Origin: Candidatus Limnocylindria bacterium
GTDB taxonomy: Bacteria; Chloroflexota; Limnocylindria; QHBO01
Direction of reading: 5' to 3'
Assembly (NCBI GenBank): GCA_038253355.1
Contig: JBBSHF010000001.1
Coordinates: 933 to 64,932, forward strand
Length of the DNA stretch: 64,000 nt
Shown: in pieces, positions 6,686-50,549 of the stretch
Layout of the letters: the number at the start of each line of letters is the position of its first letter
Numbering within the stretch: the stretch's first letter is position 1
The notes under the pieces: generated by a model
Databases searched by the model: none
What the model saw: the letters and a program-made list of their open reading frames with translations, nothing else
Told to the model about the DNA's origin: nothing
Position numbers and translations under genes: made by a program

Positions 6686-7414
6686 ATGGCAGCTCCGCGC
6701 ATCGACGAGCTGGGTGACCGTCTGGGCATCAGGCTTCGCGAGCCCGAAGCCATCCAGCAGGCGTTCGTCCACAGCTCCTATTTCAATGAGAACCCGCGGG
6801 GCGTCATTGGCCACAACGAGCGCCTCGAGTTCTTGGGCGACGCGGTTGTCGGCCTGGTCGTCAGCCGCTTCCTGTACGAGCGCTATCCGGATGAAGACGA
6901 GGGATTTCTGACAGCGCGTCGCGCGGCGCTGGTCAACCGCGACGCCCTCGCTGCACTCGCACTGCAGCTTCAGCTCGACCGCTACCTGCTTCTCGGCCGA
7001 GGTGAGGCCGATGCCGGCGGCGCCACCCGTCCCTCACTGCTCGCCGCCACCTTCGAGGCGGTCGCGGGCGCCGTCTTCCTGGCGGAAGGGGTCGATGCGC
7101 TGGGCGACTGGCTGCGGCCGCTCTTCGCCGAGCGGCTTGAGGCGCCCGGCGATGGCGACGGTCCACCGAAGTCGGCCAAGAGCCGCCTGCAGGAGTGGAC
7201 GCAGCGCCATCGGCACACCAAGCCGCGCTACGAGCTGGTCGCCACCGGTGGCCCGCCGCACGAGCAGACCTTCCAGGTGGCCGCTGTGCTCGACGGTCGA
7301 CGGCTGGCGATTGGCGAGGGATCGAGCCGACAGCGCGCCGAGGAGAATGCGGCCGCCGCTGCATTGGTCGCGCTCGCCGCAGAAACGGCGAAGCCGGAAC
7401 GCGCTCACCGGTGA
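6686..7414 (+). CDS. rnc: Ribonuclease III
   Basis: ERLEFLGDAVVGLVV RNase III signature, with a dsRBD at the C-terminus. Confidence 0.9.
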   Translation: MAAPRIDELGDRLGIRLREPEAIQQAFVHSSYFNENPRGVIGHNERLEFLGDAVVGLVVSRFLYERYPDEDEGFLTARRAALVNRDALAALALQLQLDRYLLLGRGEADAGGATRPSLLAATFEAVAGAVFLAEGVDALGDWLRPLFAERLEAPGDGDGPPKSAKSRLQEWTQRHRHTKPRYELVATGGPPHEQTFQVAAVLDGRRLAIGEGSSRQRAEENAAAAALVALAAETAKPERAHR

Positions 7415-10400
7415 GCCGGCTGCGCGAGCTGCGGCTGCACGGCTTCAAGACCTTCGCCGATCCGACGCGCTTCGTCTTCGAACCGGGCGTCAACGCCGTC
7501 ATCGGTCCCAATGGCAGCGGCAAGAGCAACATGGCCGATGCGGTGCGCTGGGTGCTCGGCGAGCAATCGAATCGCTCGCTGCGCACGCGTCGTGCCGACG
7601 ATGTGATCTTTGCCGGCTCGCAGCATCGCCAGCCGCAGGGGATGGCCGAGGCCGTCCTCACCCTGGACAACGCCGATGGCTGGCTGCCGATCGACTTCGG
7701 TGAGGTCAGCATCGGACGGCGCGCATATCGCTCCGGGGAGAGCGAGTACCTGATCAACGGGGCACGCGCCCGCCTGCGGGACGTGGTTGAGCTGCTGGGC
7801 GAGGGACGCCTGGGCGCCAACGAGCTGGTGGTGGTTGGCCAGGGAACGGTCGATGCCGCCCTGTCGCTGCGCCCCGAGGAGCGTCGCCAGCTCTTCGAGG
7901 AGGCGGCCGGCGTCAAGGGTCTGCAGGTGCGCAAGAACGAGGCGATGGCCCGCCTCGCCAAGGCACGCGATAACCTGACGCGGATCACCGACCTGATCGG
8001 CGAGCTCAGGCCGCAGGTCCGCCGGCTCAGCGCACAGGCGCAGCACCAGCAGGAACACGACGGGCTGCTGCTCCACGCGCGGGCCCTCGTCGGGGAGTCG
8101 CACCGGCGTCGCGAGCGTGCTGCGCGGGCCGGACTCGGTGAGGTGCGCCGGCGGGCTGCTGCCGCCGAGGCTGCACTCGAGTCGCTGCGAGCGGAGCAGC
8201 AGGCCGGCCAGGCCGAGCAGCAGGCTGCCGAGGAGCGCTACTGGCAGGCAGAGGCCGCGGCGCGCGCCGCGGCTGAGCAGCGCGAATCGACGCGCGAGGC
8301 GCTGATCCGGGCCGAGAGTCGATCCGACGCGATGGCGGCGCGCCGCGAGGAGCTGCGCGCCGCCATCGAGCTCGGCGACCGTGAGCTGGCCGCGGCCCGC
8401 CGGGCGCGGGCGGGGCTGGTCGAGATGGCGCCTGAGGCCGAGATCGCTGCTGTCCTGGCGCGATCCACGGCGGCAGAAGGTGACTGGCAGGGGACGATCG
8501 CGATGCTGGCCGCCGCCGACGCTGAGCTGCTTGCCGCCGAGGACGCACTGGCCGAGGCGCGTCTTCGCGACGCGGAGCGGCTGGCCGCCGACGCACGACG
8601 CCGCGAGACGCTCTCCGCCACGCTCGCCCGACGAGAGCGACTCGAACGAGATCTGGCCGCGCAGGGTGAGATGTTGGCGCGGAGCCAGGCTGCGGTCGAG
8701 GCGGCGCGAACAGCGCTCTCCGCGGCGGACGCGCAGGAGGACGCAGCGCACCGGCGCATGCTCGCGGTCCAGGCCGCGTTGGCCACCGCGCAGCAAGCCG
8801 CTGATGCGACCCGCCTGCGGGCTGCGCAGCTGGCCGGGCAGGCAGAGACGGTCCGAGGCGAGCTCGCCGCGCTGCGCGAGCGGACGGAGGGCGGCAATCG
8901 GCTGGGGGCGCTGCTCGCCGCTGGCGGCTGGTCGACCCTGCTCGACGCCGTCGCCGCTCCCGAGGAAACGTGGCCAGCGATCGAGGCGCTGGTTGGTGGT
9001 GAGCTTGGCGAGGCGCTGCTGTGGCGAGACCAGGAGCTCAGCGGTGACCTTGACGTCGGCCGCGGCGTCGCGCGCCTGCTGGCCGGAGGTCCCGCAGCAG
9101 CCGGTCGCAGCGCGGCGGCCGAGCGCGAGGCCGCGTTGCGCGCGGTCGGTGCGACCCGGACAGTGGCCGAGTGGGCAGGGGCGGCCGACGTGCCGGCCAT
9201 CTTTCATCGGGCCGTGGTGGCCGCCGATCTCGCCGCGCTGCTGCGGGGCTGGCGCGACCTGCCCGCGGGCTGGTCGGCGGTGACGGTCCAGGGCGACCTG
9301 GCTGATGCTCGCGGCGTGCTGACCCTGCGCGGCCGGGCCGAGCCTGCTGGCGGCAGTGCTGCGCGGGCCCACGCCCGACGACGCGAACTGGCGGAGCGGA
9401 TGGAGGCGCTCAGCGCCGAGGAGCTGCAGGCCGCCGCCACCACCGAGGGCGCTGCCTCAGAGCTCGAGCGGCTGCGTCGCGAGCTCGCCGAGGTGCGGCA
9501 CGCGCACGAGGAGGCAGAACGCGTGACGCGCCGCGCACGCGCCGAAGCCGATCTGGTGCAGGCAAACCGGGAACGCGGCGAGCGTGAGGCGGCGGAGCTC
9601 GACACCCAGCTGCGGCGCGCCCGGGCTGCCGAGGCGACAGCGGGGAGCACTCCGGACGCCAGGACGCCGGGCGATGGGCAGCTCGACCGCCTCACGCTCG
9701 CTGTCGTCGAGGCGCGCCGCCGTCGAGACACCGTGGCCGCCGAGCGCGACAGCGCGCGCGCCGGGTGGCAGGAGGCGCGCGCGGCAGCCGAGGCGGTCGA
9801 GACGAGCAGCGTCGGGCAGCGACGCGAGCGCGGTCTTCTCGAGGCGCGGGTGGTGCAGCATGAAGCGGCGCTTCCCACGCAGCGCGCGGTGCTGGCCACG
9901 ATCGAGCAGGAGTCGACGACGGCCGGCGACCTGCTTGCGGCGGCGCACACACGCGACGGCCTGGCTGCCCGAGCGCGTGCCGCGGCCGATGCCGAGCGTG
10001 AGCGGCTGCGCGCGGAGCTGCTTGCCAAGGAGCGCGGCAGCGGAGCCGCCGCTGCACGCTTCGGCGAGCTGGAGCGTGACGCGCAGGCATCGGCGATCGA
10101 GGCCTCGCGACAGGAGGACGCGCTCAGCGCGCTGGAGCGCGAGCGCGAGCTCGCCCTGGAGAGCCTTCCAGAGGCGGATGAGCCGTCAACGGTCGGCCAG
10201 TCGCCCGAATCTGAAGACCCACAGCTTTTCGGGATGGACGAGGCGAGCCTCGATACGGAGCTGCGCCGTGTGCGTCGCACGCTCGGCCAGATCGGATCGG
10301 TCAACCCGTTTGCCGTCGAGGAACATCGCGAGCTCGCCGCGCGGCTCGACGACGTGTCGACGCAGGATGGCGACCTGCGCGGCGCCATCGGCTCCACTGA

Positions 10401-10929
10401 AGAGCTGCTCGGACGACTGGACGCCGAGATCGCCGACAAGTTCAACCTGGCCTTCTCGGCGATCGGCGATCGCTTCGACGAGTTCTACCGGCTCCTCTTC
10501 GCCGGGGGTTCGGCGGCGCTGCAGATGAGCGACGACAGCGACGGCAGCGACGGAATCGACGGCGAGTCGCCTGGCGGTATCGAGATCGTGGTGCGTCCGC
10601 CCGGCAAGCGGCCGCAGCGACTGGCCATGCTCTCCGGTGGAGAGCGCGCGCTGACCGGCGTGGCGCTGCTCTTCGCCATGCTGAGCGTCAATCCAGTCCC
10701 GTTCTGCATTCTCGACGAGGTGGATGCTGCGCTCGACGAGGCGAACATCGGCCGCTTTGCCGATGCGCTGCGCAAACTCAGTGAGACGATCGACTTCGTG
10801 GTGATCACCCACAACCGCGCGACCATGGAGGTGGCCGACACGATCTACGGCGTGACCATGACCGATGCGGCCGTGAGCCGCATCCTGTCCCTGCGCCTGA
10901 CCGATCTGCCGGTCGAGGTGCATGCCTAG
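7411..10929 (+). CDS. smc: Chromosome segregation protein SMC
   Basis: N-terminal Walker A GPNGSGKSN; very long Ala/Arg/Glu-rich coiled coil; C-terminal LSGGERALTGVALLFAM...ILDEVDAALD signature. GTG start overlaps the rnc stop (GTGA). Confidence 0.9.
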   Translation: MSRLRELRLHGFKTFADPTRFVFEPGVNAVIGPNGSGKSNMADAVRWVLGEQSNRSLRTRRADDVIFAGSQHRQPQGMAEAVLTLDNADGWLPIDFGEVSIGRRAYRSGESEYLINGARARLRDVVELLGEGRLGANELVVVGQGTVDAALSLRPEERRQLFEEAAGVKGLQVRKNEAMARLAKARDNLTRITDLIGELRPQVRRLSAQAQHQQEHDGLLLHARALVGESHRRRERAARAGLGEVRRRAAAAEAALESLRAEQQAGQAEQQAAEERYWQAEAAARAAAEQRESTREALIRAESRSDAMAARREELRAAIELGDRELAAARRARAGLVEMAPEAEIAAVLARSTAAEGDWQGTIAMLAAADAELLAAEDALAEARLRDAERLAADARRRETLSATLARRERLERDLAAQGEMLARSQAAVEAARTALSAADAQEDAAHRRMLAVQAALATAQQAADATRLRAAQLAGQAETVRGELAALRERTEGGNRLGALLAAGGWSTLLDAVAAPEETWPAIEALVGGELGEALLWRDQELSGDLDVGRGVARLLAGGPAAAGRSAAAEREAALRAVGATRTVAEWAGAADVPAIFHRAVVAADLAALLRGWRDLPAGWSAVTVQGDLADARGVLTLRGRAEPAGGSAARAHARRRELAERMEALSAEELQAAATTEGAASELERLRRELAEVRHAHEEAERVTRRARAEADLVQANRERGEREAAELDTQLRRARAAEATAGSTPDARTPGDGQLDRLTLAVVEARRRRDTVAAERDSARAGWQEARAAAEAVETSSVGQRRERGLLEARVVQHEAALPTQRAVLATIEQESTTAGDLLAAAHTRDGLAARARAAADAERERLRAELLAKERGSGAAAARFGELERDAQASAIEASRQEDALSALERERELALESLPEADEPSTVGQSPESEDPQLFGMDEASLDTELRRVRRTLGQIGSVNPFAVEEHRELAARLDDVSTQDGDLRGAIGSTEELLGRLDAEIADKFNLAFSAIGDRFDEFYRLLFAGGSAALQMSDDSDGSDGIDGESPGGIEIVVRPPGKRPQRLAMLSGGERALTGVALLFAMLSVNPVPFCILDEVDAALDEANIGRFADALRKLSETIDFVVITHNRATMEVADTIYGVTMTDAAVSRILSLRLTDLPVEVHA

Positions 10930-46536: not shown

Positions 46537-47072
46537 CCGAGCTCAACCTGCGGCGGAGGCGGAGGCGGGGGCGGCGGACACGTCGAAATGACCGACCTGG
46601 GCCACGGGTCATCGTCGAGATTGAGGGCCTCATCGTCGGCTATAGCGACCCCACCGAGAGGTGACCGAGGATCGGCCGATTCTCCTCTGCCTCCTGGAGG
46701 GCACCGGCGCAGATTGATCGTGTCCGGATCAAGCTTCGCGGCCTTATGGCTACTGAAGTCAACTCTTCATGGAATCCCGACGGCCTAGTTCCTCATGTTC
46801 CTTGACATGTAAACGCTTTCGGTCCACGATGAAACCGACGGCAACGGTCGCATAGAAGGTTGCTATTCCGCACGAGGTCTGTCGGCTGCGCGCCTCGACG
46901 AGGATTTCGTCCGACCCGACGGTGGACAACTCAACCGATGGTCGGGGCGGATGTGGATGTCTAGCCTCCCTTCTCAGCGGGCGGCAAAGCTCCTCTCGGG
47001 AGAGGAGGCGGTGCGATACGATACGAGATGACACTCCTGAGCGCGCTCCATATGAAGCAGGGAGAGACTCTC

Positions 47073-47498
47073 ATGCGCGTTATGCGGATACTGTTCGGCC
47101 TGTCGCTACTTGCAGCGATGCTCACCGCCTCGCCGGTTGCGGCAGACGGGAGATGCAATGGACAGCGAGGCATCCAGGTTTGGGCCGACTCGGGGTTCTC
47201 GGGAAGCAGCACTGTCTGGTGCCAAAATAATACTGGCGGCATCGCCATACCCGACCTGTCGACTCACCACGAGGGAGGCCAGTGGTGGCCTCAGAGCTGG
47301 AACGACGCGATCAGCTCGTTCCAGACGTTCAACATGTCCAGCACATTGCCCACATGCTTCTATCAAAACAGCAACTATGGCTCGACCTACTGGCGCTATA
47401 ACGGCAACCAGTCGATCCAGTACGTCGGCCTCGATAGGAACGACCAGTTCTCTTCGCTCCTGGTCGCCTGGCCGAAGTACAACTACTGCGGATCGTAG
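47073..47498 (+). CDS. Secreted single-domain beta-gamma crystallin-fold protein (killer-toxin / SMPI-inhibitor-like), in a lower-GC islet
   Basis: Signal peptide MRVMRILFGLSLLAAMLTASPVAADG. Two Greek-key motifs (VWADSGFSGSS...SWNDAISSF and FYQNSNYGS...RNDQFSSLL). Four Cys residues. AGGGAGAG RBS. Confidence 0.6.
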   Translation: MRVMRILFGLSLLAAMLTASPVAADGRCNGQRGIQVWADSGFSGSSTVWCQNNTGGIAIPDLSTHHEGGQWWPQSWNDAISSFQTFNMSSTLPTCFYQNSNYGSTYWRYNGNQSIQYVGLDRNDQFSSLLVAWPKYNYCGS

Positions 47499-47513
47499 AG
47501 GGAACGAACGTTC

Positions 47514-48404
47514 GTGCGCACTCTGGCGGACGCCGCGTCGGTCGACGACTCGGCGCCCGCCCTTGAAGCCCACAGTCTATCGAAGCGCTACAGACGCGGC
47601 GTCTGGGCGCTGCGAGCGATCGATGTGTCGTTTCCCCCAGGCGCAATCATCGGTCTCGTAGGTCCCAACGCGGCCGGCAAATCCACGCTCATCAAGACCT
47701 GGGTGGGCTTCGAACGGCCGACGAGCGGGTTCGTCAGGGTCGATGGCTTCGATCCGTTTCGGCAACGGCACGAGGTCATCCAGCGGCTGGCCTACATTTC
47801 CCAGCGCACACCGCTCTACCGCCAGCTGACCGTGGGCGAACACGTCGAGTTCGCCCGAATCCTTCGGCCCGGCTTCGACGCTCGTCTTGCATTCTCGCGC
47901 CTTGATGCCCTGGACATTCCTCGCCGCGCCTCGGTGGCGGAGGTGTCCGGCGGTCAAGCTGCCCAGCTAGCGCTGACCATCGCTCTCGCCACACGGGCGC
48001 ACACGATCTTGCTGGATGAGCCCCTGGCGAGTCTCGATCCGCTCGCGCGCCGGGAATTCCTGAGTGCTCTCCGCATGGCCGTCCGGACCGAAGGACTCAC
48101 CGCGCTACTGTCAAGCCACATCGTGACCGACGTGGAGCAGGTCGCCGATCGCATCGTCGTCCTTGGCGTGGGACGCAAACTCCTCGATGAGTCCGTCGAC
48201 GCCATCGTCCGCAACCACGCAGTAGCCCGAAATGGGACGGCATTGCCGCCCGGCGCATCCGAGGTCGCGGCCATCACCGACTCGAGCGGACAGCCGATAC
48301 GCGTTCTCCGCACCAACGGCAGCATCGATGGGCTTGAGACACCGGGGGTTGAGGATGTGGTGATGGCCTATCTGGCCGCAGGGCGCACCGATCGGCCCAC
48401 ATGA
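47514..48404 (+). CDS. ABC transporter ATP-binding protein
   Basis: Walker A GPNAAGKST, ABC signature LSGGQAAQ, Walker B ILLDEP. Confidence 0.8.
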   Translation: MRTLADAASVDDSAPALEAHSLSKRYRRGVWALRAIDVSFPPGAIIGLVGPNAAGKSTLIKTWVGFERPTSGFVRVDGFDPFRQRHEVIQRLAYISQRTPLYRQLTVGEHVEFARILRPGFDARLAFSRLDALDIPRRASVAEVSGGQAAQLALTIALATRAHTILLDEPLASLDPLARREFLSALRMAVRTEGLTALLSSHIVTDVEQVADRIVVLGVGRKLLDESVDAIVRNHAVARNGTALPPGASEVAAITDSSGQPIRVLRTNGSIDGLETPGVEDVVMAYLAAGRTDRPT

Positions 48405-49375
48405 TGGCGCGCTCGTTGGCAGCACTTCGAATCTCAGCGAAGCTCGATCGCTTTGAGCTGCTTACCGTGTTGGTGGTAACGGTGGTTGGGCTCGCAGCCG
48501 TGCTGCTTGTCGGGTTGCGCCTCCATTCCTTCGCGCCGAGCGCGCACTGCCAGGAGCTCGTCTGGCGCGGCTTCTCTTCGCAGGATCTGCGCGCATGCCC
48601 AGGCCTCCTGGAATTCGTCCAGTTCGACACTTCGTTCACCGGCAACGCCATGGTTGCCATGAGCGTCGCACCGTTCGCCATCGGAACGCTGCTTGGATCG
48701 CCCCTCGTCGCTCGTGAGATCGATACTGGCACCTCGGAACTGGCCTGGTCGCTCACGGTGTCCCGCACCCGCTGGCTCGTGGGTCGCCTGTTGCCGCTGT
48801 TGGCCGCGGTGCTCCTGGCGTCTCTCATCCTTGGCTTCGCGGCCGAATGGTTAGAGCATGCCCGGTTCTCGGTTGTTCCCCCGGCTGAGAGCTTTCGAGA
48901 CTACGGCAGCCGTGGGCCTCTCCTGGCCGCCCGCGCTCTAACGGCATTCAGCATTGGGATCCTCGTCGGAACTGTCCTGGGCCGAACGGTGCCTGCCCTG
49001 GTGCTGACCGCGGCCGCATGTGTTGTCGTCTATTTCTCGCTTTCAACAGCCGCGCTCGCTCTTCAACCTCTCGAGACGGTAACCACCTCGCAGGCACAAC
49101 AAGATATCGGTGCTCTCAACGTCCGCCTGGCTTGGCGAACGCCCGCTGGCCAAGTGTTGAGTGACGAGCAGGCACGGCGGACGATCCCGGCGAACTCCTC
49201 CGATCCGGAAGCCGCCATCCTCTGGCTGAACGAGCACTACCAGGGCGTCTCGATGATCATTCCGGGCACGCAGATGCCGCGTATGGCGTGGACCGAGTCC
49301 GCGCTCCAAGGTTCGGTTGTGCTGGTGGCTTTCGGAGGCGCGCTGATGCTGGTACGTCGCCGACGACCCTTCTAG
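48401..49375 (+). CDS. ABC-2 type transporter permease
   Basis: About six predicted TM helices. Translationally coupled to the ATPase gene (ATGATG overlap). Confidence 0.6.
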   Translation: MMARSLAALRISAKLDRFELLTVLVVTVVGLAAVLLVGLRLHSFAPSAHCQELVWRGFSSQDLRACPGLLEFVQFDTSFTGNAMVAMSVAPFAIGTLLGSPLVAREIDTGTSELAWSLTVSRTRWLVGRLLPLLAAVLLASLILGFAAEWLEHARFSVVPPAESFRDYGSRGPLLAARALTAFSIGILVGTVLGRTVPALVLTAAACVVVYFSLSTAALALQPLETVTTSQAQQDIGALNVRLAWRTPAGQVLSDEQARRTIPANSSDPEAAILWLNEHYQGVSMIIPGTQMPRMAWTESALQGSVVLVAFGGALMLVRRRRPF

Positions 49376-49582
49376 GGGAATGAGGGTCAACTCGAGGAAG
49401 GCGCTCCATCGTCATGTCGCGCCGTGACCTCGGTTCCCTGGAACGTCACATAACTATCATTTGCGGAAGTAGCATCGCGACACGCGGCTGGGTAGCTCGT
49501 GGGTGCTCCAGGACGAATGGCGAGAGTACCGGGAGCTGATCGGGCGATGGCCGGGCCGGCGTCACCGGCGCAACCTGAGCGC

Positions 49583-49831
49583 ATGACGAATTCATCGCGA
49601 GGTGTGCGCTGGTTCGGCGGCCTGGGGCTGGCGTCCGGCGCGCTGCTCAGCGTTGCGGCGCCGCTGGCCGGTACGGAGCTCGCGGACCTGCTGGGCGGCT
49701 ACGGCACGATGCTGGCGCTCAGCGCTGGATACCTGCTCGGCGGGCTGTGGCTGCTCGGCCTGGGTCACTCTCGGCGCGTCGCGCGCGAGCGGTCGGCGAT
49801 CGCGAACGAGGTGATTTCGATTCGGCGCTGA
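49583..49831 (+). CDS. Small two-TM membrane protein (hypothetical), overlapping the convergent 3' end of the methyltransferase ORF
   Basis: GC3-rich coding-like codon usage and two hydrophobic helices. Uncertain. Confidence 0.3.
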   Translation: MTNSSRGVRWFGGLGLASGALLSVAAPLAGTELADLLGGYGTMLALSAGYLLGGLWLLGLGHSRRVARERSAIANEVISIRR

Positions 49832-50549
49832 TGGCCCGCTGACGCATCACCTCGAAGCCAATGACGGCGGCCGAGGCGGCCGTCCCGAGTGATGGCGCAT
49901 CGGTGCGTGCATAGGGGATGCGCACCTGGAGGTCGGCGCGCTCCAAGACGGCTTGCGCCAGGCCACGGCGCTCCCCGCCGATCAACAGGAAGAGCGGCGG
50001 GCGCAGGTCCGCGGCATACAGGGATTGCGCGCCGGCGGAATCGGTGGCGACCGCAATCTGCAGCCCGGCTTCGGCGAGACGTTGTGCGGCTGCCAGCGGA
50101 TCAGCGGCCAGGGCGATGGGCAGCAGCTCAGACGCGCCGGCCGAAGCTCGTGCGACGATGGCAGTCGCCGCCTCCCAGCTGCGCGGCCGGATCACCAGCC
50201 CGCTGGTCCCTGCGGCATACAGCGAGCGCAGCGCCGTTCCGAAGTTGTAGGGGTCCTCGACGCCATCGAGCATCACCACGCAGGCGTCCGCGACGGCCAG
50301 CTCGGCGAGCTGCACGTACCGTCGCTCCCCCACCTCGGCGAGCATGCCGCCGTGGCTGCGGCCGGAAGCGAGCGCGTCGATCTCGGCGCGTGGCAGTCGC
50401 TCAACCGGCACGCCGCGCCGCGTGCTGAGCGCCACGATGCGGCGCGCCTCGTGGTCGGCGCGCACGCCCTCGGCGGCGATCAGCACGCGGTGGATTGGTC
50501 GCGATTCCGCGCGCAACGCGGCCTCGATCGAAATATGGCCCTCGAGCAC
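49719..50549 (-). CDS. TrmH/SpoU-family RNA 2'-O-methyltransferase (RlmB-like)
   Basis: SpoU motifs LDGVEDPYNFGTALRS, LLIGGERRGL, IPYARTDAPSLGTAASAAVIGFE. The last ~35 codons are low-complexity because the ORF runs on to the first stop. Confidence 0.75.
   Translation of the reverse strand: MLEGHISIEAALRAESRPIHRVLIAAEGVRADHEARRIVALSTRRGVPVERLPRAEIDALASGRSHGGMLAEVGERRYVQLAELAVADACVVMLDGVEDPYNFGTALRSLYAAGTSGLVIRPRSWEAATAIVARASAGASELLPIALAADPLAAAQRLAEAGLQIAVATDSAGAQSLYAADLRPPLFLLIGGERRGLAQAVLERADLQVRIPYARTDAPSLGTAASAAVIGFEVMRQRAISAESKSPRSRSPTARARRAESDPGRAATARRAGIQR

Follow-up and report, generated by a model that had tools for sequence, protein, structure and literature searches.

In a 64,000-nucleotide stretch of Candidatus Limnocylindria (Chloroflexota) DNA from contig JBBSHF010000001.1 (hereafter, the window), an operon of approximately 2.5 kb encodes a small, predicted secreted beta-gamma-crystallin protein followed by the ATPase and permease of a putative ATP-binding cassette (ABC) exporter of the ABC-2 type. 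Our analysis indicates that this operon, referred to below as the cassette, was very probably acquired horizontally into a variable stretch between the HflX/SpoU-TrmH and the pirin/MurC genes, and that it belongs to an operon family of which we found no description. As an overall explanation, an acquired operon that serves as a two-layer protection module fits the data best, and we regard this combined reading as plausible, if slightly short of probable.

Origin and genomic site of the cassette

Searches with blastn located copies of the cassette in three further contigs. The copy in L003 matches window positions 46916-49411 (L003 8512-11009) at 90.6% DNA identity, that in L001 matches 46993-47987 at 92.4% and reaches the contig end, and that in L002 matches 47446-49374 (L002 9047-10971) at 84.3%. 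The flanks of the cassette differ among these contigs. In L003 the upstream flank carries an RHS fragment, a PadR-ABC-FtsX unit and, ~7.7 kb away, a Replic_Relax gene; upstream of the L002 copy are NUDIX and methyltransferase genes, with a gene for a tyrosine recombinase (integrase) ~2.4 kb downstream; and the upstream sequence of L001 is a third one, distinct from the other two. Public assemblies contain two close relatives of the permease (92% and 86% identity), and a diverged version of the three-gene arrangement (L174-177) adjoins a DUF772 transposase gene and a HipA_C gene.

The host site was compared with 31 related loci, in which the order GGDEF - HflX - (TrmH) - (pirin) - small membrane protein - MurC recurs. 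The best relatives of HflX, which lies beyond SpoU/TrmH in the window, come from metagenome-assembled genomes (MAGs) labelled Candidatus Limnocylindria or Chloroflexota and are 68-81% identical at the amino acid level. A tblastn search with the three cassette proteins returned no match in any of the 31 loci, 17 of which cover the entire HflX-to-MurC interval. Horizontal acquisition, which an initial annotation of this DNA had proposed from composition and gene context, is thus well supported, because none of the 31 related loci has the cassette and three contigs with unrelated flanks, two of them with mobility genes in the vicinity, carry it at 84-92% identity.

The composition of the segment is consistent with this conclusion. 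The cassette has a guanine-cytosine (GC) content of 63.3%, compared to 69.4% for the remainder of the window, and it is close to 63% GC in every host, with the flanks of the copies at 65-69%. In a sliding analysis, positions 46540-49580 had the lowest GC of any 3-kb stretch: 63.0% (z ~ -3.6), compared to 69.1% for the window as a whole and to a mean of 69.1% (sd 1.7) over the 3-kb stretches. The low-GC islet described in the initial annotation is therefore real, but it is milder and shorter than claimed: the upstream region, put there at about 50% GC, measured 61.2% over 536 bp, and only 100-bp windows at 46700-46850 reach 51-58%. The ABC genes themselves show a modest dip, to 64-66% GC. GC at third codon positions (GC3) was ranked over the 49 genes of at least 150 amino acids in the window (mean 0.858, sd 0.04), and the ATPase (0.76) and permease (0.73) genes had the two lowest values, with the small crystallin gene at 0.78. 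Tetranucleotide usage deviates as well, with the 2.5-kb window that starts at 46751 ranking second in the 64 kb (z +4.0). The strongest tetranucleotide deviation in the window (z 4.4), exceeding that of the cassette, belongs to a 1244-amino-acid open reading frame (ORF) at 7195-10929.

Both edges of the shared block could be placed closely. On the right, homology to L003 ends at 49411 and a native Limnocylindria element resumes at 49443, so that the junction falls within ~30 bp; on the left, the block shared with the copies begins near 46916. A check for direct repeats, and for inverted ones, at these borders found only short repeats at chance level. There are no tRNA genes in the 64-kb window, a Pfam and ORF survey detected no mobility gene between MurC and the GGDEF gene, and searches of PLSDB plasmids, GenBank phages and IMG/VR gave no match. 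A classical genomic island or integrative element was considered and rejected: the composition and the patchy distribution fit such an element, but an integrase, a tRNA and border repeats are missing.

The interval that received the cassette varies in its own right. The spacing from TrmH to pirin ranges from 0.44 to 7.5 kb among the relatives, and pirin or TrmH is absent from several loci. Thus, the flanking genes, which had been taken for ordinary core genes, are themselves variably present. The larger gaps between HflX and MurC (in loci L004-L034) carry unrelated genes of host-like GC content that differ between MAGs, including genes for an M14 carboxypeptidase with CWB2 repeats, GAF, histidine-kinase, response-regulator and cyclase proteins, an AMP-binding enzyme and an AlkZ-like glycosylase, and no recognizable mobility gene was found in this interval in the Limnocylindria relatives. 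The HflX-MurC interval is a plasticity zone without recognizable mobility genes, and the cassette lies within it, given that the gene content, pirin and TrmH all vary among relatives. For Limnocylindria, an abundant uncultured soil lineage, the cassette represents a cleanly delimited gene gain at a spot that exchanges content without recognizable mobile-element machinery.

The small crystallin protein and its linkage to the pump

The three cassette genes have exactly the coordinates given by the initial annotation (Table 1), and their tight coupling was likewise confirmed. The GTG start codon of the ATPase gene begins 15 bp past the stop codon of the small gene, and the ATG of the permease gene overlaps the ATPase stop codon by 4 bp (ATGA). 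All three genes are under purifying selection, with ratios of nonsynonymous to synonymous substitution (dN/dS) of 0.13-0.23; the ratio is 0.125 for the small gene compared to L001, and 0.17-0.23 for the ATPase gene. A perfect 10-nt palindrome, CGAACGTTCG, at 47505-47514 spans the interval from the small-gene stop to the ATPase GTG, and its counterpart in L001 and L003 has one mismatch (CGAGCGTTCG).

The small protein starts with a signal peptide at residues 1-24, composed of MRVMR, a hydrophobic core and the putative cleavage site VAA|D, leaving a mature protein of 117 amino acids with an isoelectric point of 5.4, four Cys, seven Trp and seven Tyr. Exact database look-up showed that the window proteins are not on record, and a word-indexed protein search with the small protein returned one relative, at 94% identity. 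A full HMMER search over 1.84 billion representatives extended the family to 61 relatives (E <= 1e-3), and almost all of these are small proteins of ~130-160 amino acids with signal peptides. In the family alignment (A2), W76 is invariant and C28, C50, S81, S82, D124, S127 and S128 are nearly so.

Beta-gamma-crystallins are defined by two Greek-key motifs of the form Y/F/WxxxxY/FxG (PMC3551895). The first motif of the window protein, W37ADSGF42SG44, matches this signature exactly, and the second, Y97QNSNY102G103, nearly does, with its Gly one position early and Y-x-G present in relatives. Two canonical calcium motifs of the form N/D-N/D-X-X-S/T-S are present (NDAISS and NDQFSS), as is the case for 32 of the 42 family members. 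Structure prediction with the 42-sequence alignment reached a confidence (pLDDT) of 86.4, compared to 39 from the single sequence, and the closest folds were Protein S, spherulin 3a, clostrillin and a crystallin domain from Flavobacterium annotated as 'carbohydrate binding protein'. The sequence profile alone matches clostrillin (1e-9) and spherulin 3a (9e-9). Among Pfam models, the window protein itself retrieved only Crystall_3, below threshold; Inhibitor_I36 is matched by 18 of the 42 family members (E <= 0.01), and five of ten individually checked relatives (P0034, P0036, P0038, P0040 and P0042) pass its threshold, at 22.2-29.6 bits. The beta-gamma-crystallin fold suggested by the initial annotation is therefore borne out by the profile, the predicted fold and the calcium motifs. 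We assign the small protein, as judged from these sequence features, as a predicted Sec-secreted single beta-gamma-crystallin domain of the calcium-binding type within the Pfam I36 superfamily, with the calcium-binding crystallins as its apparent nearer kin and I36 as the enclosing Pfam family.

The microbial calcium-binding crystallins used for comparison were clostrillin (3I9H), Protein S (1NPS/1PRS), spherulin 3a (1HDF), nitrollin (3ENT) and flavollin (3HZB). Unlike these, the window protein is stand-alone and secreted, has four Cys, of which C28 and C50 are nearly invariant in its family, carries an insertion of ~25 residues between the first Greek key and the first calcium motif, and has an imperfect second Greek-key signature. 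It also differs in its fixed genomic partnership with an ABC-2 pump, a description of which we found for none of them.

The downstream genes encode recognizable ABC components. The ATPase matches PF00005 (ABC_tran; 81 bits with a cut-off of 25, 1.6e-22) and contains, as read from its translation, a Walker A motif (GPNAAGKST), a signature motif (VSGGQ) and a Walker B motif (ILLDEP). Its best NCBIfam model is drrA (109 bits compared to a cut-off of 312), with PmtA also below cut-off and galliderm_ABC at 94 compared to 310; it thus falls far below the cut-offs of all named equivalogs, such as DrrA, PmtA, lantibiotic protection and NatA. The permease matches PF12679 (ABC2_membrane_2; 38.1 bits with a cut-off of 27.2), its relatives are annotated as PF26999 (ABC-2_memb_rel), and a hydropathy scan identified six hydrophobic segments. 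Searching NCBIfam with the permease gave no match, neither the permease nor the small protein is named in any curated NCBIfam model, and PADLOC reported only generic ATPase similarity. From their family membership, the ATPase and permease would constitute an ABC-2 (type II) exporter. The cassette contains no solute-binding protein, the small protein having a crystallin fold instead, and the pair reads as an exporter because of this absence. Permease loops 39-84, with the conserved Cys50 and Cys66, and 215-299 are predicted to face outward.

The order of small gene, ATPase and permease is the same in four lineages: the window with L001 and L003, L084-85, L174-177 and L178-179. Pairwise identities among these trios are 36-50% for the small protein, 44-51% for the ATPase and 32-40% for the permease, indicating parallel divergence. 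Viewed from the crystallin side, the genes for the relatives P0034 (53% identity), P0036 (43%) and P0042 (35%) each precede genes of the ABC_tran and ABC-2_memb_rel families. In a neighbor-joining tree of 110 permeases, the six that derive from trios (the window, L003, L002, L084, L174 and L178) form one clade. The contig L002 has no small gene and keeps its final 11 codons (FSSLLVAWPQY) ahead of the ATPase gene; its ABC-only state is a secondary loss, since this remnant persists. The synteny conserved in four diverged lineages, together with the single permease clade, supports the view that the trio is a conserved operon family, recruited once, in which the small protein and the pump would be functionally linked.

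These data also bear on whether the three genes might be accidental neighbors that were never transferred, with the GC dip arising from the amino acid make-up or from weakly biased codon usage in an ancestral region of poor expression. Such an account would be in keeping with the modest dip of the ABC genes, with the lack of mobility genes, tRNA and border repeats at the site, and with an interval that varies among relatives even without mobile elements. It is very improbable, however, given that the trio is kept in four lineages at 32-51% identity with its permeases in one clade, that the same block recurs at 84-92% identity in three other genomic contexts, that all 31 related loci lack it, and that the lowest values in the window are seen for GC3 and not just for total GC.

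Proposed function and alternatives

As a mechanism, we tentatively propose that the cassette encodes an envelope-protection (resistance/immunity) module consisting of a secreted binder or inhibitor and an ABC-2 pump. The small protein would leave the cell by Sec alone, fold outside with calcium and probably two disulfides, and act extracellularly as a binder or inhibitor that complements the exporter formed by the ATPase and permease. Together, the two would provide a two-layer envelope protection with a logic like that of LanI plus LanFEG in lantibiotic immunity. The small protein would not be cargo of the pump, because its own signal peptide removes the need for pump export. Either part could also work alone, which would account for ABC-only derivatives and for crystallin genes that occur in other surroundings.

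An extracellular binder or inhibitor is favored because of the calcium-stabilized fold and its motifs, the naming of the I36 family after a metalloprotease inhibitor (SMPI), and the position of some relatives upstream of genes for secreted hydrolases. Specifically, P0040 lies 13 bp upstream of a Peptidase_M10 gene (gene pair at L180/L181 3708-4805) and P0096 lies 18 bp upstream of an Amidase_6 gene (gene pair at L089 5001-6122). A small gene directly upstream of a hydrolase gene is the usual layout of inhibitor-enzyme pairs, and these two arrangements may be inhibitor-hydrolase pairs. SMPI of Streptomyces nigrescens, an I36 peptidase inhibitor, acts on M4 metalloproteases (PMC9002140). Like SMPI, the window protein is small, secreted and probably disulfide-containing, shares the same superfold and comes from Terrabacteria; half of the ten checked relatives pass PF03995, and one adjoins the metalloprotease gene mentioned above. 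Unlike the situation for SMPI, that neighboring protease is an M10 rather than an M4 enzyme, and the window protein does not match PF03995. We know of no inhibitory activity in the family of the window protein, for which an inhibitor role is possible.

An envelope-stress or resistance setting is suggested by GerE and histidine-kinase neighbors, by PspC and LiaF-like genes upstream of some distant ABC pairs, and by the mobile, patchy nature of the unit. The trio at L178 is preceded by genes for a histidine kinase and a GerE-type response regulator, and that at L084 is followed by a GerE gene. The cassette resembles LanI plus LanFEG, and BcrAB/DrrAB, in that a DrrA-like ATPase and an ABC-2 permease appear to be co-transcribed with an extracytoplasmic beta-rich protein, and it resembles them further in the two-component regulator beside one trio and in its mobile, patchy occurrence. 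LanI is a lipoprotein with a lipobox, and LanFEG has two permease genes and is linked to a lantibiotic cluster. Membership of the cassette in that system was rejected, as it has no lipobox, a single permease and no biosynthetic genes; the resemblance is one of logic only.

Several observations weigh against an acquired operon with a protective role. With respect to acquisition, the cassette is accompanied by no integrase, tRNA or border repeats, and the relatives used to establish its absence are only 68-81% identical in HflX. The neighbor-joining tree of permeases carries no support values. The parallel to LanI and LanFEG is weakened by the single permease gene, by VAA|DGRC in place of a lipobox, and by the lack of an antibiotic cluster in the window or the sister loci. 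The window protein has no match to PF03995 (Inhibitor_I36; cut-off 21.1 bits) at E <= 0.1, and SMPI is absent among its sequence and fold matches. The small gene occupies the upstream position in none of 80 distant ABC pairs listed from metagenomes, which are a sample of at least 80 loci rather than a census and were obtained with a narrower permease alignment as the query. In L003 the small gene is intact save for a CGA-to-TGA nonsense mutation at codon 32, although this may be a variant of the assembly or of the population. The distant pairs that lack the small gene, along with this nonsense codon, argue that the pump does not need the small protein. Finally, all functional claims for the members of the trio rest on sequence, context and predicted structure.

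The permeases of the 80 distant loci are 28-37% identical to that of the window, and an ATPase gene is almost always directly upstream of them. One of the loci contains a weak match to the small protein, on the opposite strand. The genes upstream of 41 of the distant pairs are heterogeneous, including L9, CarboxypepD_reg, GerE, PspC and LiaF-like genes, and the idea that distant pairs generally have a small-protein partner was rejected on this basis.

The initial annotation had favored a toxin or inhibitor paired with an exporter or immunity transporter dedicated to it. In this form the idea is not supported, as the small protein has a Sec signal of its own and the 80 listed distant pairs lack the small gene. 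As a rival explanation, this reading takes the small protein for an offensive toxin, a bacteriocin-like agent or an inhibitor aimed at competitors, and the ABC-2 pair for an immunity pump or exporter of the producer, which would agree with the tight linkage and mobility of the trio. Killer-toxin-type crystallins (WmKT 1WKT, SKLP 1F53, AFP1 1GH5 and MiAMP1 1C01) share the superfold and are likewise small, secreted and disulfide-rich. Loss of the small gene in L002 and its inactivation in L003, with the pump retained in both, matches an orphan-immunity pattern, and crystallin relatives occur in phage-like contigs. These relatives, P0049 and P0122 (~30% identity), lie in contigs (L086-L088 and L091-L093) with RNR, primase, PolA, RuvB and methylase genes; the contigs have no match among GenBank phages or IMG/VR, and their phage context is judged from gene content alone. 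The P0049 and P0122 genes adjoin genes with YAcAr domains (Logan SRR138389xx contigs).

We nonetheless consider a toxin somewhat unlikely. The Sec signal peptide makes a dedicated exporter superfluous, and an ABC-2 pump that neutralizes a folded 13-kDa protein is implausible, given that the immunity pumps of the ABC-2 type known to us target small membrane-active peptides, not folded proteins of 13 kDa. Moreover, no maturation, leader-peptidase or separate immunity genes are present, toxin folds match weakly, and most of the permease family, as seen in the 80 listed loci, lacks the small-gene partner.

Alternatively, the cassette might serve to assemble the envelope or a surface coat. The pump would then export a non-protein component of the envelope, such as a glycolipid or glycan, and the calcium-binding, Trp/Tyr/Asn/Ser-rich crystallin would either bind this component or assemble on the surface in the manner of Protein S. 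The nearest folds (Protein S, spherulin 3a, clostrillin and the Flavobacterium domain), the two canonical calcium motifs shared by most family members, and the seven Trp and seven Tyr in the mature protein would suit such a role, and ABC-2 exporters commonly move glycans and lipids (e.g., Wzm/Wzt, TagGH and DrrABC). We view this as unlikely, since no glycosyltransferase or lipid-synthesis genes accompany the trio in any of the four lineages and a three-gene mobile unit without biosynthetic genes would be an odd vehicle for an envelope polymer; the protease, amidase and two-component contexts also point elsewhere.

It is also conceivable, and in our judgment quite unlikely, that the pump includes the crystallin as a genuine extracellular subunit, docked on permease loops 39-84 and 215-299. 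Calcium, or a ligand bound by the docked crystallin, would then lead it to gate or target export. Such a pump, if real, would represent a new class of ABC exporter, one that has a soluble beta-gamma-crystallin partner, and the microbial crystallins would have their first defined molecular role.

Each part of the cassette comes from a known superfamily, and the combination would be, on sequence grounds, a subfamily of ABC-2 exporters that is linked to a crystallin and carried on a small mobile unit. A literature search for the crystallin and ABC-2 combination gave no description of it, only a general review of bacterial calcium proteins. To our knowledge, microbial beta-gamma-crystallins are widespread and, save for the spore-coat Protein S, have almost no assigned function, and ABC-2_memb_rel pumps are uncharacterized. 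A conserved mobile operon that joins the two therefore offers a concrete, testable handle on both families. If a resistance or immunity module is the correct reading, it would be a new transferable defense unit in soil Terrabacteria. The conserved linkage should be useful to specialists on crystallins and ABC-2 transporters, and it overturns no expectations.

Leader, upstream spacer and right-hand border

The coordinates of the cassette, its genes and motifs, and the surrounding non-coding features are collected in Table 1.

Table 1. Features of the cassette and adjoining sequence (window coordinates)
Feature	Coordinates	Strand	Basis or remark
Cassette, very probably acquired	46916..49411	+	Block common to copies in other contigs; edges within ~30 bp
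Small secreted protein, 141 amino acids	47073..47498	+	Predicted single beta-gamma-crystallin domain
First Greek-key signature, W37-ADSG-F42-S-G44	47181..47204	+	Regular expression on translation
First calcium motif NDAISS, residues 77-82	47301..47318	+	Motif scan of translation, family alignment
Second calcium motif NDQFSS, residues 123-128	47439..47456	+	Motif scan of translation, family alignment
ABC ATPase, 296 amino acids, GTG start, DrrA-like	47514..48404	+	Pfam ABC_tran 1.6e-22
ABC-2-type permease, 324 amino acids	48401..49375	+	Pfam ABC2_membrane_2, hydropathy scan
Operon leader / 5' region	46947..47072	+	Kept with insertions and deletions in L001 and L003 (alignment A1)
7-bp hairpin	46990..47007	+	Specific to the window copy
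TTGACA hexamer	46802..46807	+	Chance-level; outside the block common to the copies
Non-coding stretch, pirin stop to shared block	46537..46915	.	~380 bp, locally 51-64% GC
Conserved non-coding host element	49443..49470	+	83-96% identity to L025, L006 and L019, 3' of their TrmH genes

In the leader, a Shine-Dalgarno-like GGGAGAG lies 7-13 nt ahead of the ATG at 47073, and the sister copies have AGGAGG. The perfect 7-bp hairpin reported by the initial annotation exists, but it is not conserved: only four pairs are possible at this site in L001 and L003. Both of these copies (L001 ~300-345 and L003 ~8570-8600) carry a 15-bp leader insert, ATTTGACAAGGTTCG, which contains a TTGACA and is absent at window positions 46985-46990, and the window owes its perfect hairpin to the lack of this 15-bp stretch. 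Folding of the leader showed no excess compared to shuffled sequences (z 0.38), and the best Rfam match, to the atpB RNA, was below threshold (20.2 bits, with 37.4 required; E 0.31); a structured RNA in the leader or spacers was rejected on these grounds.

Further upstream, the TTGACA hexamer at 46802-46807 is present as described, but its value as a promoter element is unsupported, as the 64-kb window contains six occurrences compared to 8.6 expected and no sigma-70-type promoter was called there. The hexamer was accordingly rejected as evidence of a sigma-70 promoter. The non-coding stretch in which the hexamer lies (46537-46915) is not common to L001, L002 and L003 and has no convincing match in 80 Limnocylindria loci, and the two ORFs within it have no Pfam match. 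It may be either a fast-evolving host spacer or part of the insert.

Beyond the right border, the host element AACGTCACATAACTATCATTTGCGGAAGT (49443-49470) is followed by GGCTGGGTAGCT (49486-49499), and both are conserved in L025, L006 and L019. The element has no Rfam match and probably serves the small membrane-protein gene downstream of it as promoter or operator. This gene, an ORF at ~49583-49831 on the forward strand with two predicted helices, is conserved at the DNA level in L010, L014, L008, L021 and L009. The ORF and the SpoU/TrmH gene (49719-50549, reverse strand) are convergent, and the ORF overlaps the 3' tail of SpoU/TrmH by 113 bp, in a low-complexity portion beyond the SpoU domain.

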